Shown here: piece after piece, positions 8,479-14,896 of the stretch
Numbering within the stretch: position 1 is the first letter of the stretch
Layout of the letters: each line of letters begins with the position of its first letter
From: Acidimicrobiia bacterium
GTDB lineage: Bacteria; Actinomycetota; Acidimicrobiia; IMCC26256; PALSA-555
DNA: 51,974 nucleotides
Assembly (NCBI GenBank): GCA_040902705.1
Contig: JBBDWT010000015.1
Coordinates: forward strand, 1 to 51,974
Direction: 5' to 3'
The notes under the pieces: generated by a model
The model's input: the letters and a program-made list of their open reading frames with translations, nothing else
What the model was told of the DNA's origin: nothing
Database searches by the model: none
Program-made: the position numbers and the translations under genes

Positions 8479-8815
8479 TCCCCGCTCCCCGTCACTCTTA
8501 TGCCGATTGAGCGTCTACGCCCACGCAAGAGGATACGGAGGGCGGTCGAACGTGACAGGGACTCCCGAGTTCGCGCGGAGAGTGGTCATAGTGATGCCTT
8601 GGGTCTTGCGATCCGGCTGGGGCGCGGTGACACTTGTGAGGCTCCTGTGAAGCAGGATGACTGGTCTTCCCTAGGCGGGGAGGTGGAGAGGGGACTGGAC
8701 GAAGCGGGCAGGATCTCGGCATAACCAGGGGCTGAAGAGCCTCGAAGCGGAGCGTCACCTCATCGGTAACTAGTTGCGCCGGCGGGAGTTCCCCAATGAT
8801 TGGGGGGGATTCGCT

Positions 8816-8905
8816 GTGAAGAGGGTGTTCGCACGTCTTGCCATTATCGGTTCGAGCATTGCTGCGCTGCTGCTTGCAGGTGGCGCTAGCCGCATCTGGC
8901 GGTAA
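8816..8905 (+). CDS. candidate 29-aa small membrane/signal-like peptide upstream of the HD-domain genes
   Basis: Own reading; it is below the ORF-track cut-off. GTG at 8816 is preceded by GGGGGGA 8 nt upstream, and TAA is at 8903-8905. Translation: VKRVFARLAIIGSSIAALLLAGGASRIWR (basic N-end, one hydrophobic helix). No homology evidence is possible here. Confidence 0.3.
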   Translation: MKRVFARLAIIGSSIAALLLAGGASRIWR

Positions 8906-8959: not shown

Positions 8960-10285
8960 ATGACAGCGACCCGAGATCGCCTACTGACGGTTCTTTGTAT
9001 TGGCGTGTTCACGGTCGCGGTCGCGTCCGCTGTTGTTCTGGCGATTCTTGGGCCCAGTCCCGATTTCGTAGCGCTCGCCATCTTCGTCGCGCTCTCAGTC
9101 TTCGCCGCCGACACGAGCGTTGTGTTGCCCAACGATTCGGCGCTTAGCGCGAGCTTCATGCTGTGCGTCGCGTCGGTCGTCGTCTTCCATGGCGATGCGC
9201 AGTATCTCGGACCACTCATTGTTGGCGCCGGGGCCGGCGTCTACCTGCCGCACTTGCGCGAACACGAGTGGCGAAAGGTGCTGTTCAACTCGGGCAGCCT
9301 CGGTCTATCGGCCCTTGCCGCAGCAGCGATCTACGGCGTTGTTCCGAGTGCTGTTCTTGAGTCGGTCCCGGGCGAGCTTGCCGCGGCGATTCCGACGGCT
9401 CTCACGTACTCGCTCGTGAACTACTTGTTGCTGACCGTCGTACTCGCTCTCCACGAGAACCGTCCACTCACGAAGGTGGCCGACGAACTCTGGCTCGGCG
9501 ACCTCCAGATCTATCCGTTCGCGATCATGGGTGTGCTGCTTGGTGAGTTGTACCTGGATCTCGGAGCATGGCTGGTGCCGTTGTTCGTGGCGCCAATCCT
9601 CATCGCGCGAGCGGCATTCGCTTCGTATCTCGCGCTGCGCGAGGCACAAGAAGCGACGCTTTCAACCCTGATCCGTACGCTCGAAGCAAAGGACCGTTAC
9701 ACGGCGGGTCATGTCGAACGCGTGGCGACGTATGCCGAGTTGATCGCCGTCGAGCTCGGGTTCCGACACAGCCAACTCGTGCGGCTCCGCTACGCAGCAC
9801 TCCTCCACGACATCGGCAAGCTCGTCGTGCCGAACCAGATCCTCAACAAGCCGGGTCGCCTGACGGAGGCGGAGTTCGCTCAGATGCGGCGGCACGAATC
9901 TGCATCCCTCGACATGCTTCGGCGCATCGACTTCCTGGCGCCGGTGGCGCCGAGTCTCGAGGCCGGGGCCGCAGGCGACCGCTCCGGGCCCGTGGAGGCA
10001 CGAATCATCGGTGTCGCCGATGCATTCGACGCCATGACATCCACGCGGGCCTATCGACGCGCGCTCAGTCAAGAGGTCGCGTTCTCCGAACTCCGAGGGA
10101 AGGCAGGCACGCAGTTCGACAGCGCGTGCGTCGAGGCCTTGATCACGGTCATCGAACGAAGTGGCGATCGCTACGGCGCCGGGCACGAGGTCGAAGTGGC
10201 CGACTACGCAGTGCCGCCGCCGGTAGCGGGGCTCGGTTCGGCTGGCCTCGGTGACCTCGAGCGAGAGCAGGGAGTGAAGCAGTGA
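8960..10285 (+). CDS. polytopic membrane protein with a C-terminal HD-domain (HD-GYP-related, GYP absent) phosphohydrolase
   Basis: 441 aa. The first ~230 aa are multi-TM. They are followed by EAKDRYTAGHVERVATYA...AALLHDIGKLVVP...LNKPGRLTEAEFAQMRRHE...GVADAFDAMTSTRAYR. This is the HD-GYP-superfamily layout, but the GYP loop is missing. Confidence 0.85.
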   Translation: MTATRDRLLTVLCIGVFTVAVASAVVLAILGPSPDFVALAIFVALSVFAADTSVVLPNDSALSASFMLCVASVVVFHGDAQYLGPLIVGAGAGVYLPHLREHEWRKVLFNSGSLGLSALAAAAIYGVVPSAVLESVPGELAAAIPTALTYSLVNYLLLTVVLALHENRPLTKVADELWLGDLQIYPFAIMGVLLGELYLDLGAWLVPLFVAPILIARAAFASYLALREAQEATLSTLIRTLEAKDRYTAGHVERVATYAELIAVELGFRHSQLVRLRYAALLHDIGKLVVPNQILNKPGRLTEAEFAQMRRHESASLDMLRRIDFLAPVAPSLEAGAAGDRSGPVEARIIGVADAFDAMTSTRAYRRALSQEVAFSELRGKAGTQFDSACVEALITVIERSGDRYGAGHEVEVADYAVPPPVAGLGSAGLGDLEREQGVKQ

Positions 10286-11466
10286 GCCGGAGAGTTCTGC
10301 TCGTTGCGATCGCGCTCGTCGGCTGTCTCCTGGCCGGTGCTGCCTCGGTAGCTGGAGCCAAAGAGGCGCTTCCTGACCTCATCATTCTCGCGACTGCGCT
10401 CGTCGTCGCAGAGCAGTTCGAACTGCGGCCGTACAACCGCGCGGCGATTCCGCTTTCCTTCGCCGGCGTCATCGTTCTGGTTCGCGCCGCGGATCCCGCC
10501 GAGTTCGTGGCCATCGTTGCGGTGGCATACATCGTGGCGGTAGCGCTTCGGCCCGAACCTAGCGGTCTCTCGCAGCGATGCGCCCTCTACGCGGAGCGGA
10601 TCGTCGAAGCCGTTGGTGCCGGCATCTTGTTCCATTTCGTTCTCGAGTTCGCCGAGAGTGAGGATGCAAAGGCGATCGTCCTCGGCGGCCTTGCTGTCGC
10701 CGCTGCCTTCGAGATCCTCATCGCCGATCTCGTCGTGCTCATTCGCGATCACAGGATCGCTCCGGTACGGGCGCGTGGCGCAGACGTCGCGCTCGTGACC
10801 TCGGGGATGCTGATGGCTGTCGGATATGACGGGATCGGCGGCGTCGGTGGGATCGGTCTGTGGGGCCCGCTTCTCTTCTCGATCCCCCTGCTGGCGGCTT
10901 GGTACTCGTTCGAGCTCCTGGCGTCGACTCGCCGCAACTTCCAACAGACCATCGAAGCCCTTGGGAGCGCCGCCGAGCTCGCCGGGCTTGTACGGCCTGG
11001 GCATGTCGAACGGGTAGCCGAGCTCACGGTGGCGATGGGCGACCAGTTGGGCATGTCCGAGACCGAGATCGAGCAGCTGTCGACTGCTGCGTTGCTGCAC
11101 CACCTCGGCGCGGTGTGCCTCGACGCGCCTGGTGCGGGAGCGCAACTCGATCCGGGTGCCGTCGCCGAGGCGGGAGCAACAATGCTCCGCGCGAGCGAGG
11201 TGCTTGCACCTGCGGGAGACATAGTCGCAGCAGAACCCTCGTTGCATCGCCCGCCGACGGCACACCCGCAGCCCGAGTCTGCGCTGTCCGGACAGGTGCT
11301 CAAGGTGGCAAGTGCGTTCGACGAGCTCACCGACGGTCGGGACGAGCACGCGTCGTGGGCGTTGGAAGCGCTCTACACCGGCCCGCTGTACGTCTACGAC
11401 GGTCGGGTTGTCGGAGCCCTGGAGCGCGTGCTCGACCGCCGGGGCGTGCTCGTCGCCCGCGTCTGA
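10282..11466 (+). CDS. paralogous polytopic membrane protein with a degenerate HD-like domain
   Basis: The GTG at 10282 overlaps the upstream stop (GTGA). Architecture matches the previous gene. The metal-binding HD dyad position reads AALLHHLGAV, and the other conserved His/Asp positions are largely lost (GHVERVAELT is retained). Confidence 0.75.
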   Translation: MSRRVLLVAIALVGCLLAGAASVAGAKEALPDLIILATALVVAEQFELRPYNRAAIPLSFAGVIVLVRAADPAEFVAIVAVAYIVAVALRPEPSGLSQRCALYAERIVEAVGAGILFHFVLEFAESEDAKAIVLGGLAVAAAFEILIADLVVLIRDHRIAPVRARGADVALVTSGMLMAVGYDGIGGVGGIGLWGPLLFSIPLLAAWYSFELLASTRRNFQQTIEALGSAAELAGLVRPGHVERVAELTVAMGDQLGMSETEIEQLSTAALLHHLGAVCLDAPGAGAQLDPGAVAEAGATMLRASEVLAPAGDIVAAEPSLHRPPTAHPQPESALSGQVLKVASAFDELTDGRDEHASWALEALYTGPLYVYDGRVVGALERVLDRRGVLVARV

Positions 11467-12035
11467 TTGGTGCGTCGCGAACCCTGGGTGCGGTTCGCTC
11501 CGCGCCGCCGATGTCGAGTGCCGTAGTACACGAGCTCGCAGATCCCGACGGCCATGATCAGATCGCCGAACGACACGACGCTGTCGAGCGGCTCGGGCAG
11601 CACGATGGTGTCCCCGAGAACGCCGAGCAGATCGTCGTCGGTCTCCGGTCGGTGCTTCACCGTCTGCTCGATCGTCTTCTCGATCCGGTTTCCCTGTGCG
11701 TTGTTCTCGATGTTCACCGTGGGCATGCCTTGGTTGAGCCCGATGACGAGCGCGTTCAGGCCGATCCCCACGGCAATCACACCGAACCCGCGCGTCTGGA
11801 GGTTCACGAAGCAGAAGGAGAGGATGAACGCATACGAGACCATCAGCAGGCCGTAGCCGACGGTCTCGATCTGGTCCGCGTCGAACTCGACGAACTCGAG
11901 CGCGATCTGAATCGCGAGTCCCGCGAACAGGAGCCAGATGCCGGCGAAGCGGAGCGCCGTGAGCTCCCGAAAGTCGCCCCATGTCACGATGACGATGAGG
12001 ACTGCAGCACCGATCGTCAGGACCAGGAGCCACAC
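11394..12035 (-). CDS. DUF5317-like small polytopic membrane protein with an Arg/Ser/Thr-rich C-terminal tail
   Basis: 213 aa. Four to five TM segments are followed by NQGMPV...IVLPEPLDSVVSFGDLIMAVG, which is the pattern I associate with DUF5317. The last ~40 aa (RHRRRGANRTQGSRRTNQTR...) overlap the 3' end of the convergent gene by 73 nt. Confidence 0.6.
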   Translation of the reverse strand: MWLLVLTIGAAVLIVIVTWGDFRELTALRFAGIWLLFAGLAIQIALEFVEFDADQIETVGYGLLMVSYAFILSFCFVNLQTRGFGVIAVGIGLNALVIGLNQGMPTVNIENNAQGNRIEKTIEQTVKHRPETDDDLLGVLGDTIVLPEPLDSVVSFGDLIMAVGICELVYYGTRHRRRGANRTQGSRRTNQTRATSTPRRSSTRSRAPTTRPS

Positions 12036-12874: not shown

Positions 12875-12928
12875 CGCGTGTCTGCAGACTCACGCGCGCT
12901 GCGCGTGTGACACGCCTTTTCTGAGTTT
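12875..12928 (+). terminator. cluster of mutually exclusive GC hairpins ending in a T-tract (terminator/attenuator-like)
   Basis: Three stems share arms: CGCGTG(12875-80)/CACGCG(12891-96), CACGCGC(12891-97)/GCGCGTG(12901-07) and GCGTG(12903-07)/CACGC(12911-15). They are followed by CTTTTCTGAGTTT. The cluster sits immediately after the crotonase stop at 12872. Confidence 0.4.
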
Positions 12929-13004
12929 CCCCCGTAGACATTACGAAGGCGCGTCGGTAGGTTCGACGGTGCTTCAGGGGCAGCGGGGGAAGCTGGGAAC
13001 TCTG

Positions 13005-13709
13005 ATGGATTCATTCGGCGATGCAGCTCCGGAGGAACTCCACCTCCTCATCGCGCAGTACCGCGACGATGCCTACCGATTGGCGCGTCGCCTCTCGCGA
13101 AGTCAGTACGAGGCGGAGGATCTCGCCCAGACCGCGCTGCTGAACGTGCTCCGGCGGGCGGAGTTCATCGTCGACGAGACGAAGATCCGGTCGTACCTGC
13201 TCACTGCAGTCCGGAACGTATGGCGGAACCAGCTCCGTGCACGCTCGAATCGACACATCGTCGGTTCCGACGTCGCCGAGATGATCCCGTCGGACGACCT
13301 GCTCCCGGAAGAGCAGGTGCTCACGGTCTTGGACGCCGCGCTTGCTTCCCGGGCATATGCGTCGCTCTCGCACACGAGCCGCGAAATCATTCGCCTGCGC
13401 TATGTCGAGGCGCTCGACTACCACGACCTCGCGGCTCAGCTCGAGATCACTCCAGTCGCAGCGCGACAACGTGCTCACCGAGCTCGCGAGGAGCTGGTCA
13501 GCGCCTGCATGGAGCTTGTGGCGGAGAGCGGAGAGGGGGCCTGCCGACAGACCCGCGCGCGTCTCGGTCGGTATCACCGCGGACTGCTCACGAGGAAGGC
13601 TCGCGCCGAACTGGCGGGTCACCTTGAAGCGTGCGCGCGTTGTGTCAATTGCTACGAGCAGATCGTCGATCTCTACGGGTCGCGCATTGATCCACGGAGC
13701 GATGCGTGA
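13005..13709 (+). CDS. ECF-type sigma-70 factor with a C-terminally fused ZAS (zinc anti-sigma) domain
   Basis: ORF 12969..13709; the ATG at 13005 is preceded by GGGGGAAG. Region 2 reads EDLAQTALLNVLRR...YLLTAVRNVWRNQLR. Region 4 reads REIIRLRYVEALDYHDLAAQLEITPVAARQRAHRAREEL. This is followed by C-x25-H-x3-C-x2-C (ACRQ...AGHLEACARC), the ZAS ligand pattern. Confidence 0.8.
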   Translation: MDSFGDAAPEELHLLIAQYRDDAYRLARRLSRSQYEAEDLAQTALLNVLRRAEFIVDETKIRSYLLTAVRNVWRNQLRARSNRHIVGSDVAEMIPSDDLLPEEQVLTVLDAALASRAYASLSHTSREIIRLRYVEALDYHDLAAQLEITPVAARQRAHRAREELVSACMELVAESGEGACRQTRARLGRYHRGLLTRKARAELAGHLEACARCVNCYEQIVDLYGSRIDPRSDA

Positions 13710-14896
13710 GTGACGCGACGCTTGATCGAGACGTTCGCGTCGTTGCTGCGGGTTACGGCGACTCGCTTCGCTTCCGCGTCGTGGTCGCGGTCTACTCCGC
13801 AGCAATTGCCGCCGCAGCGGTGTTCGCGGCTGTCACGGGTAGCGACGCTGATTGGGTTCCGGTCTTGTTGCTCGCCGCGCTCTTTGTGTTGGCTGAGCAT
13901 CGCGACCGCGTATTCACCGATGAAACCGGACTGAGCGGAAGCATCGCTGTCGCACTGTCGGCCGCGTACTTCGTCGCAAGCGACGGTTGGGTTGGTGGGG
14001 CCTTCTTCGTTGGTGCTGCTGGCGGTTTGTACGTGCCCCACCTGCATCACAGGGCATTCTCGAAGATCATCGTGAACTCCGCTTCGTTCGGCCTGTCTTC
14101 TCTAGCGGCAGCTGCCTCGGTCTTCGTTATGACGGAGCGGAGTAGTTCAGCGTTAGCCATCGCGATGTCTGTGGTACTCGCGACCGCGGTCTACTGGTTG
14201 ATCAATAGTCTGTTGCTCGCCGTCGCGACATCGGCGCTGAGCCGCGAGCCTGTGCTCGGGGACGTCGCGCAACTCGTTCGGTCCGACACGGTGATGCTCG
14301 TGTTCGGCCTCGGTGGGGCCATCTGCGGTGTCGTGATGACCGAGGTGGGGACGTGGACCGGGATCGCCACGCTGGTCGCGCTGCTGGTCGCGCTCGACGT
14401 GTTCGTCATCTCGGTTCCTGCGGGCTTGACCGTCCTCCGATCGGCGTGGGCCGTCATGCTTGCGCGTGGCGTGTCAGGGGGCGTCGCCGGGACTGTCGGT
14501 GCGTGTGTCACGCGGGTGGTCTCGATCTCGGTGCTCGGCGCGATCACCGGCTTCGCTGCCGGCATGGCCGCCGGCGTCGTCATCGTCGTGTTGATCCTCG
14601 GGGCGAGGTTGATCGTGAGCCAGCGGCGAGTCGATCCCGCACTCGTGGGCGGACTCGTCGTGATCGAGGTCGCATTTCCCGCGATCGCAGCAACGGCGGG
14701 AGTGGTGACGTCGCTCGCCGGATTGCGCGCGGGGCTCGTCGTCGCATCGGCGCTCGTGGTCGCTGGCTCGGTCGCAGTCGCGGTCCGCCGTCGGCGTTCG
14801 AAGGCCGAGCGGCCCGCCATCGAAGACGACACGCTGATGGCGGCGGTGGTCGAGGCAATGCTCGACGGCTTGCCCAGCCCCAGCCGCGATCGCTGA
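13706..14896 (+). CDS. polytopic membrane protein; its N-terminal module is paralogous to the TM module of the two HD-domain proteins
   Basis: The GTG at 13706 overlaps the sigma stop (GTGA). 396 aa with about 10 hydrophobic segments. GAAGGLYVPHLHHRAFSKIIVNSASFGLSSLAAAASVF aligns with GAGAGVYLPHLREHEWRKVLFNSGSLGLSALAAAAIYG in the 8960 gene. There is no soluble output domain. Confidence 0.7.
   Translation: MSDATLDRDVRVVAAGYGDSLRFRVVVAVYSAAIAAAAVFAAVTGSDADWVPVLLLAALFVLAEHRDRVFTDETGLSGSIAVALSAAYFVASDGWVGGAFFVGAAGGLYVPHLHHRAFSKIIVNSASFGLSSLAAAASVFVMTERSSSALAIAMSVVLATAVYWLINSLLLAVATSALSREPVLGDVAQLVRSDTVMLVFGLGGAICGVVMTEVGTWTGIATLVALLVALDVFVISVPAGLTVLRSAWAVMLARGVSGGVAGTVGACVTRVVSISVLGAITGFAAGMAAGVVIVVLILGARLIVSQRRVDPALVGGLVVIEVAFPAIAATAGVVTSLAGLRAGLVVASALVVAGSVAVAVRRRRSKAERPAIEDDTLMAAVVEAMLDGLPSPSRDR

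Follow-up and report, generated by a model that had tools for sequence, protein, structure and literature searches.

A conserved ECF sigma–ZAS fusion translationally coupled to a MASE9-like membrane protein in uncultured Acidimicrobiia

What controls a sigma factor whose putative inhibitor is part of the same polypeptide, and what is the role of the membrane protein encoded by the gene that overlaps it? The question is raised by positions 13005–14896 of contig JBBDWT010000015.1 from an Acidimicrobiia bacterium (assembly GCA_040902705.1), the window analysed being the whole stretch of 51,974 nucleotides. An initial annotation had described here an extracytoplasmic function (ECF) sigma factor that continues, in one polypeptide, into a complete zinc anti-sigma (ZAS) domain and is followed by a coupled open reading frame (ORF) for a polytopic membrane protein. 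This description was borne out, and the two genes are a conserved signalling module of uncultured Acidimicrobiia, in which a soluble sigma–ZAS protein is paired with a membrane partner containing a MASE9-like sensor module.

The product of the first gene matches the NCBIfam model TIGR02937 (sigma70-ECF) with 79.3 bits (cutoff 42.9) and zf-HC2 (PF13490) with 28.0 bits (gathering score 22.2). As is characteristic of ECF (group 4) sigma factors, it contains regions 2 and 4 only, both above cutoff, and the Pfam and NCBIfam scans gave no sigma3 match. Its profile matches in the PDB are all ECF sigma factors, with region 2 aligning to SigE and SigL of M. tuberculosis, among others. The C-terminal segment reads ...GAC(180)RQTRARLGRYHRGLLTRKARAELAGH(206)LEAC(210)ARC(213)..., that is C180-x25-H206-x3-C210-x2-C213, the motif given in the initial annotation, and these four putative zinc ligands are invariant in all 59 aligned homologues. 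A search of a large protein collection with the sigma–ZAS protein returned 245 relatives, of which the best 120 were scanned. These share 59–100% identity, are 227–265 amino acids long and, where the source is named, come from Acidimicrobiia metagenome-assembled genomes. Every one of the 120 has the exact C-x25-H-x3-C-x2-C spacing, and in every one the tail past the CxxC is short (17–29 amino acids), non-hydrophobic and devoid of a membrane segment; the window protein ends ~20 residues after the CxxC. The ligands of RsrA are C11, H37, C41 and C44, a spacing identical to that of the 120 homologues.

The ZAS assignment is also supported at the structural level. A profile of the segment, compared with the PDB, aligned HLxxCxxC to the corresponding residues of RslA (3hug_B, E 9e-7) and ChrR (2q1z_B, E 4e-4), with further matches to DdvA and RsiW, so that the alignment of Cys and His positions anticipated by the initial annotation was obtained. 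A single-sequence phmmer search of the same segment against the PDB was empty; a profile is thus needed for the match. The AlphaFold2 (AF2) model of this region contains three helices (179–192, 197–209 and 211–224; predicted local distance difference test, pLDDT, 85–92), connected by a ~5-residue loop to the long last helix of sigma4, and class-I ZAS/zf-HC2 domains are defined by H-x3-C-x2-C with an upstream Cys/His ligand in a helical bundle. Since ligands and architecture are constant in 120 of 120 homologues and the ZAS profile aligns, chance, a frameshift and a recent fusion are excluded as the origin of the domain. In addition to the four ligands, the clade has further conserved residues, namely C168 (59/59), H191 (55/59) and C216 (54/59; His in four), encoded at 13506–13508, 13575–13577 and 13650–13652, respectively, and lacking in long ECF52-like relatives. 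These might constitute a second metal site or alternative disulfide partners.

The fusion and the gene pair are conserved together. A metagenome scan yielded 62 further loci at 42–80% sigma identity, each of which was checked by script, and every complete sigma ORF among them keeps the ZAS motif. An ORF matching the partner profile adjoins the sigma–ZAS gene in 47 of the 48 ingroup loci with room downstream; across these 47, the partner start codon lies between −11 and +6 nt of the sigma stop, with a 4-nt NTGA overlap in 27. In the window the partner GTG falls within the sigma stop, and the 4-nt GTGA overlap, read directly from the sequence, agrees with the junction and translational coupling first proposed at 13706. 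As fusion and junction are kept down to 42% sigma identity in about 60 loci, the suggestion that the fusion arose recently by loss of a stop/start junction has to be abandoned. A scan of genome contigs found only one true relative. The coordinates of all features are collected in Table 1.

Table 1. Positions of the two-gene module, its upstream element and the neighbouring genes within the window
Feature	Coordinates	Strand	Details
ECF sigma factor gene with C-terminally fused ZAS anti-sigma domain	13005..13709	+	234 aa, conserved ATG 13005; Pfam and NCBIfam matches
Sigma region 2, residues 15–81	13047..13247	+	PF04542 (Sigma70_r2), E 2e-12
Sigma region 4, residues 119–164	13359..13496	+	PF08281 (Sigma70_r4_2), E 2.7e-8; AF2 helices 108–173
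ZAS (zf-HC2) domain, residues 180–224	13542..13676	+	PF13490, match spans residues 180–213
Coupling junction	13696..13709	+	GGAG 13696–13699, 6 nt, GTG 13706–13708 overlapping TGA 13707–13709
Polytopic membrane partner gene	13706..14896	+	396 aa; ~10 predicted transmembrane helices and re-entrant hairpin
MASE9-like sensor module, residues 35–218	13808..14359	+	motifs AEHRDRVFxDETGLSGS, LYxPHLRxRxxxKxxVN
Conserved tail of partner, predicted cytoplasmic	14810..14896	+	RRRR...DDDxLxAAVxEAxLDGLP; predicted helix 374–387
Housekeeping (sigma-A) type promoter-like element	12935..12963	+	TAGACA 12935–12940, 17-nt spacer, TAGGTT 12958–12963
MASE9-like sensor fused to HD-GYP-type (HD_5) domain	8960..10285	+	HD_5 E 6.5e-25; MASE9 E 0.019 (weak)
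Second membrane-anchored protein, degenerate HD domain	10282..11466	+	sub-threshold HD matches; in all syntenic loci
DUF5317 membrane protein	11394..12035	−	PF17248, E 1.3e-24; kept at every syntenic locus, the rearranged L042 among them

The window partner has no Pfam or NCBIfam match, MASE9 being absent even at E ≤ 10, and Foldseek found no solved structure with a fold matching its model. Its 48–56 detectable homologues all belong to the same lineage and include a single Pfam match, P0161, which scores 30.6 bits on PF20972 (MASE9; cutoff 24.3), while P0163 reaches E 0.011. A profile search with the partner alignment retrieved no wider family and no homologue bearing a ZAS (zf-HC2) domain. 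MASE9 was described by Galperin and colleagues as a sensor of HD-GYP proteins with eight transmembrane (TM) segments, among which two short ones form an intramembrane hairpin, and with ligand binding probable within the membrane (bioRxiv 10.1101/2021.11.05.467447). The AF2 model of the partner (pLDDT 86.2; predicted template modelling score, pTM, 0.82) is all-helical with a strongly hydrophobic sequence, and the short helices 77–92, 97–105 and 110–114, placed between full TM helices, resemble a re-entrant hairpin. With these helices and a paralogous HD_5 fusion nearby, the partner fits the topology described for MASE9 and its association with HD-GYP or GGDEF outputs. When the positive-inside rule is applied to the AF2 helices, the N-terminus, C-terminus and conserved motifs would all be cytoplasmic. 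Conservation in the tail is concentrated at D373, D375, A380, V381, A384, G388 and P390, with low pLDDT in isolation, and the tail is a candidate docking element. In L025, L032, L040 and similar loci (~57–60% sigma identity), the partner is ~500 amino acids long with a longer and different TM middle; such variants, which gave no match in a Pfam scan, keep the N-terminal MASE9-like half and a C-terminal DDELxDVLRSALLDxPASRLP tail.

The sensor module has a counterpart among the neighbouring genes. The partner family aligns to the N-terminus of the 8960–10285 protein with 99.7% probability (hhalign, E 1.5e-25, 184 columns), and the motif LYxPHLRxRxWxK is common to both. On sequence comparison, the sensor module of the partner is thus a paralogue of the 8960–10285 sensor encoded 4 kb upstream, as had been proposed for an HD-hydrolase sensor module; this holds for the first HD protein only, for the partner and the second HD-like protein (10282–11466) are unrelated by both BLASTP and hhalign.

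A similar pairing exists outside the clade. The closest sigma-core relative beyond it is P0176 (L071, 2400–5500), a ZAS-less ECF sigma factor of 210 amino acids, whose gene overlaps by ATGA that of an 823-amino-acid membrane protein composed of three tandem MASE9-like modules, each matching the partner profile at E about 1e-28 to 1e-31. Although known from a single contig, this pair implies that the association of sigma and MASE9-like protein is not a by-product of ZAS fusion. It adjoins a ribonucleotide reductase and an RHS-repeat gene. The contexts of the other ZAS-less relatives (P0181, P0183, P0190, P0173 and P0282) were uninformative or had too little contig. P0183 and P0206 (L073 and L074) are sigma-core relatives of ~210–230 amino acids with a different Cys-rich C-terminal tail (CxxC...CxxC, zinc-ribbon-like), and P0183 lies among small genes including DUF6011, in a phage-like context.

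The upstream region bears on the level at which control may be exerted. The initial annotation had pointed to 12929–13004 as a possible site of an ECF-type autoregulated promoter; the one element strongly conserved there looks instead like an actinobacterial promoter of housekeeping type. Within the window TAGACA-17-TAGGTT occurs once, the chance expectation being 0 matches, and the corresponding (G)TnGACA-N17-18-TAnnnT block precedes the sigma start by 41–88 nt in 25 of 60 related loci under a strict pattern, with relaxed variants (TAGCAA, TGGACA and TTGAC) in others. A sigma-70 consensus scanner reported nothing at its own thresholds. A promoter with a GGAAC-like −35 and a CGT −10 gave way to the conserved TAGACA-17-TAnGTT, GAAC being present in few loci and its spacing to CGTC inconsistent. 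In the absence of a conserved ECF-type −35/−10 pair, autoregulation is not indicated, and the housekeeping-like element fits post-translational control.

Two further observations were made in this region. An in-frame GTG at 12969, 5 nt past the −10 hexamer, is a possible alternative start of the sigma gene (ORF 12969/13005–13709); L003 and L010 have an ATG at the equivalent position and the longer form is called by JGI (P0027), which suggests a leaderless isoform, longer by 12 residues, for some members. Further upstream, the palindrome GCGTGTGACACGC at 12903–12925 is followed by a T-run and flagged by a scanner as terminator-like. Orthologous loci have a GTGACGCGCGAT(T/A)T-like block some 20 nt upstream of the −35, and L008 has it too, although a different gene, on the other strand, precedes it there, so that the palindrome may be an operator rather than a terminator.

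Collectively, these results point to a working model to which we give about an even chance. The ZAS domain would hold the sigma factor inactive in cis, and the coupled MASE9-like partner would bind or anchor it and deliver a membrane-derived signal relieving the inhibition, with thiol oxidation as a possible second input. In such a scheme, the housekeeping-type promoter would lead to both proteins being made at a fixed ratio; the zinc-loaded ZAS domain would fold back on sigma4/sigma2 and prevent the sigma factor from joining RNA polymerase, which is what the ZAS domains of RsrA, RslA and ChrR achieve in trans. With the self-inhibited sigma factor bound or anchored by the membrane partner, inhibition would be released once the MASE9-like module senses a change inside the membrane; oxidation or alkylation of the zinc thiolates could be another trigger. 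The parts of this scheme that concern inhibition in cis, contact with the partner and the signal are inferred from ZAS domains and sigma-adjacent genes in other systems: fused ZAS extensions are regarded as inhibitory, and an ECF sigma factor usually has its regulator encoded by the gene that is coupled to its own immediately downstream (PMC7826278, PMC8999054). Support comes from the partner tail, which is kept even where the TM core varies, and from the AF2 helices of the partner, which fit the published MASE9 description.

Several points weigh against this model. One concern is that the AF2 model of the sigma–ZAS protein (pLDDT 80.9) has a pTM of 0.47 and a disordered sigma2–sigma4 linker (83–106), so that docking of the ZAS domain on the sigma factor in cis is without direct support. 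Further, Foldseek scores are ~0.3 (TM-score) to both RNA polymerase-bound (free) and anti-sigma-bound ECF sigma factors, and with generic ECF matches at this level the open and closed states are not separable. No anti-sigma domain can be recognised in the partner, whose N-terminus shows little conservation; a target promoter or regulon for the sigma factor did not emerge; and the clade-specific C168, H191 and C216 hint at redox or metal chemistry for which the partner might not be needed. Finally, one ingroup locus (L042, 717–4519) contains a sigma–ZAS gene without an adjacent partner; this locus is rearranged, its enoyl-CoA hydratase, DUF5317 and HD-like genes being still adjacent in altered orientation.

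A bolder extension of the model, possible but held only tentatively, is that MASE9-like polytopic proteins are an unrecognised class of ECF sigma partner, acting as sensor or as anti-sigma factor without a canonical domain, with or without a fused ZAS. At this locus one intramembrane sensor module would then have two parallel outputs, in cis on an HD-GYP-type enzyme and in trans on a self-inhibited sigma factor, and the acidic amphipathic tail would serve to complete the three-helix ZAS domain or to unlock it.

The alternative that survives best, though it is on the unlikely side, is a cytoplasmic one-component redox or thiol switch, in which zinc-thiolate oxidation of the fused ZAS domain frees the sigma factor and the partner, a regulon member or a protein of unrelated function, is merely co-transcribed. 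The protein is soluble, its ligand spacing is that of RsrA, among solved structures the ZAS profile matches the redox-sensitive RslA best, and C168, C216 and H191 are conserved in the clade. However, the same motif is present in ChrR and RsiW, ZAS proteins not known to be redox-regulated. Moreover, if the partner is irrelevant to sigma control, it is hard to see why 47 of 48 loci, with sigma identities as low as 42%, keep the overlapping coupling to a membrane gene and why a ZAS-less relative has the same kind of partner.

That ZAS-less pair can also be read as a sign that the MASE9-like protein is itself an anti-sigma factor of a new type, the ZAS domain serving as an adaptor or positive element that provides docking or an active conformation, comparable to the extensions of ECF41, ECF42 and CorE. 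Positive roles of C-terminal extensions are documented (PMC8999054, section 3.5.1), and AF2 gave no confident sigma2/ZAS/sigma4 sandwich. This reading is nevertheless improbable: a profile of the ZAS segment matches anti-sigma domains that are bona fide inhibitors, the four ligands are invariant and the ZAS-less example is the only one found (n=1).

It is about as doubtful, and slightly more so, that the module was produced by evolutionary splitting, that is by a cut between the ZAS and the membrane part of an ECF52/53-type single polypeptide (sigma–ZAS–TM–extracytoplasmic region). When 1.8 billion representative proteins were searched exhaustively, the short sigma–ZAS architecture accounted for only about five representatives, and the next matches were proteins of 400–1346 amino acids with 30–35% identity across sigma2, sigma4 and ZAS, for example from Blastococcus and Amycolatopsis. 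Of the 150 best representative relatives of the full-length query, 132 have C-x24-26-H-x3-C-x2-C and 114 are at least 330 amino acids long with 1–3 hydrophobic segments directly after the ZAS domain; the long relatives carry Pro/Ala-rich or PKD/Ig-like (also carbohydrate-binding) extracytoplasmic regions. The window protein ends where their TM helix begins, a point in favour of splitting. Against this, the partner profile does not match the long sigma–ZAS–TM relatives, none of which is polytopic, and no partner homologue contains zf-HC2. With the sigma core only (residues 1–170, phmmer), ZAS-less ECF sigma factors score 66–111 bits and long fusions 44–54 bits, these scores being a proxy for an ECF Hub group assignment. 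As a ZAS-less relative is, in addition, already paired, the membrane part cannot well be described as “split off” in the evolutionary sense, as the initial annotation had it. The chance that an assembly error or a frameshift, or else a gene fusion of very recent date in one genome, produced the module is negligible, given that architecture and junction recur in independent assemblies from JGI, ENA, NCBI and Logan and that no point in favour of this reading was found.

The module is embedded in a conserved neighbourhood. On long orthologue contigs the gene order is MASE9-like/HD_5 protein, second HD-like membrane protein, DUF5317 protein on the opposite strand, (enoyl-CoA hydratase), sigma–ZAS, membrane protein, (carboxyltransferase), major facilitator superfamily transporter and biotin-lipoyl protein. 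The 8960–10285 gene is syntenic in L003, L004, L007 and L008, and the GYP region of its HD-GYP-type domain looks degenerate (GDRSGP). An ATGA overlap (10282–10285) couples the second HD-type gene to the first, and the DUF5317 gene converges on the 3' end of the 10282–11466 gene with an overlap of ~73 nt.

Just upstream of the MASE9-like/HD-GYP-type gene, 8525–8905 contains a conserved non-coding stretch of ~300 nt followed by a conserved hydrophobic small ORF of 29 amino acids (VKRVFARLAIIGSSIAALLLAGGASRIWR, end 8905). An nhmmer search found this element in 17 loci, in the same gene cluster, and Rfam gave no match to it at gathering score or E ≤ 1. In 16 sequences, RNAalifold predicts 22 pairs, three with compensatory changes, such as the hairpin GGGGCU..AGCCUC versus GGGACU..AGUCCC. 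The element could be an unclassified leader or riboswitch-like RNA.

The module is of interest for both of its halves. To our knowledge, fused sigma/anti-sigma “one-component” ECF sigma factors are known mostly from bioinformatics, with an experimentally worked-out mechanism for IutY only, and we know of no ligand or mechanism for the MASE9 sensor domain. The sigma–ZAS clade would be experimentally convenient in that a separate partner lets genetics part sensing from inhibition. Further, the sigma–ZAS protein is small and soluble, so that its purification for studies of cis inhibition, zinc binding and redox release is possible. If the partner acts on the sigma factor, the pair would give MASE9 its first non-enzymatic output. 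In a single conserved locus, the module brings together genes of cyclic di-GMP-type signalling and an ECF sigma factor, in an uncultured lineage that has been little studied. Should the partner turn out to be irrelevant, the module would be one more, ordinary, ECF subgroup with a fused ZAS domain.

In the searchable literature, a soluble sigma–ZAS protein with an obligate, coupled MASE9-like partner appears to be undescribed, and so does the paralogous sensor on a neighbouring HD-GYP-type protein. Sigma–ZAS fusion is not new in itself. ECF48, ECF52 and ECF53 were reportedly defined by Huang et al. 2015 and Pinto et al. 2019. In these groups, whose definitions are taken here from the 2022 review (PMC8999054) and which account for the zinc-finger extensions that the initial annotation rightly called known, a zf-HC2/ZAS domain directly follows sigma4 with the same Cys/His spacing, likewise in Actinomycetota (for example SCO4117 of Streptomyces coelicolor). 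Their ZAS extension is regarded as inhibitory, and activation by proteolysis has been proposed (PMC8999054, PMC5826349). However, they carry 1–2 TM helices and a long extracytoplasmic region on the same polypeptide, whereas the window protein stops before any TM helix; their regulator part is in cis, whereas the window sigma factor is paired with a separate polytopic protein and its core is not closest to theirs by the phmmer proxy. A precedent for a soluble fusion is offered by ECF270, compared here by description only, whose ZAS regulators are soluble and in some members fused, for example in WP_011419852.1 of Anaeromyxobacter (PMC8999054); this group belongs to another phylum and has no described membrane partner.

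The pairs RsrA–SigR, RslA–SigL and ChrR–RpoE share with the window protein the H-x3-C-x2-C with an upstream Cys and helices 1–3 of the class-I domain, but in them the anti-sigma factor is a polypeptide of its own that works in trans and has a fourth helix, whereas the ZAS domain described here is covalently attached and predicted to have three. The partner, in turn, resembles MASE9–HD-GYP proteins such as TM1467 of Thermotoga maritima and HdgA of Streptomyces venezuelae in being a polytopic sensor that has a hairpin inside the membrane and polar residues conserved within or close to it. It differs from them in that its module lacks an enzymatic output domain, continues into a further ~4 TM helices and a short tail, and is genetically coupled to a sigma gene. 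Finally, ECF263 and IutY-type (ECF243) sigma factors are likewise tied to a membrane-embedded regulator as one unit (PMC7826278, PMC8999054); their tie is covalent, whereas in the Acidimicrobiia module it is made by translational coupling only, with a soluble inhibitor domain on the sigma side.

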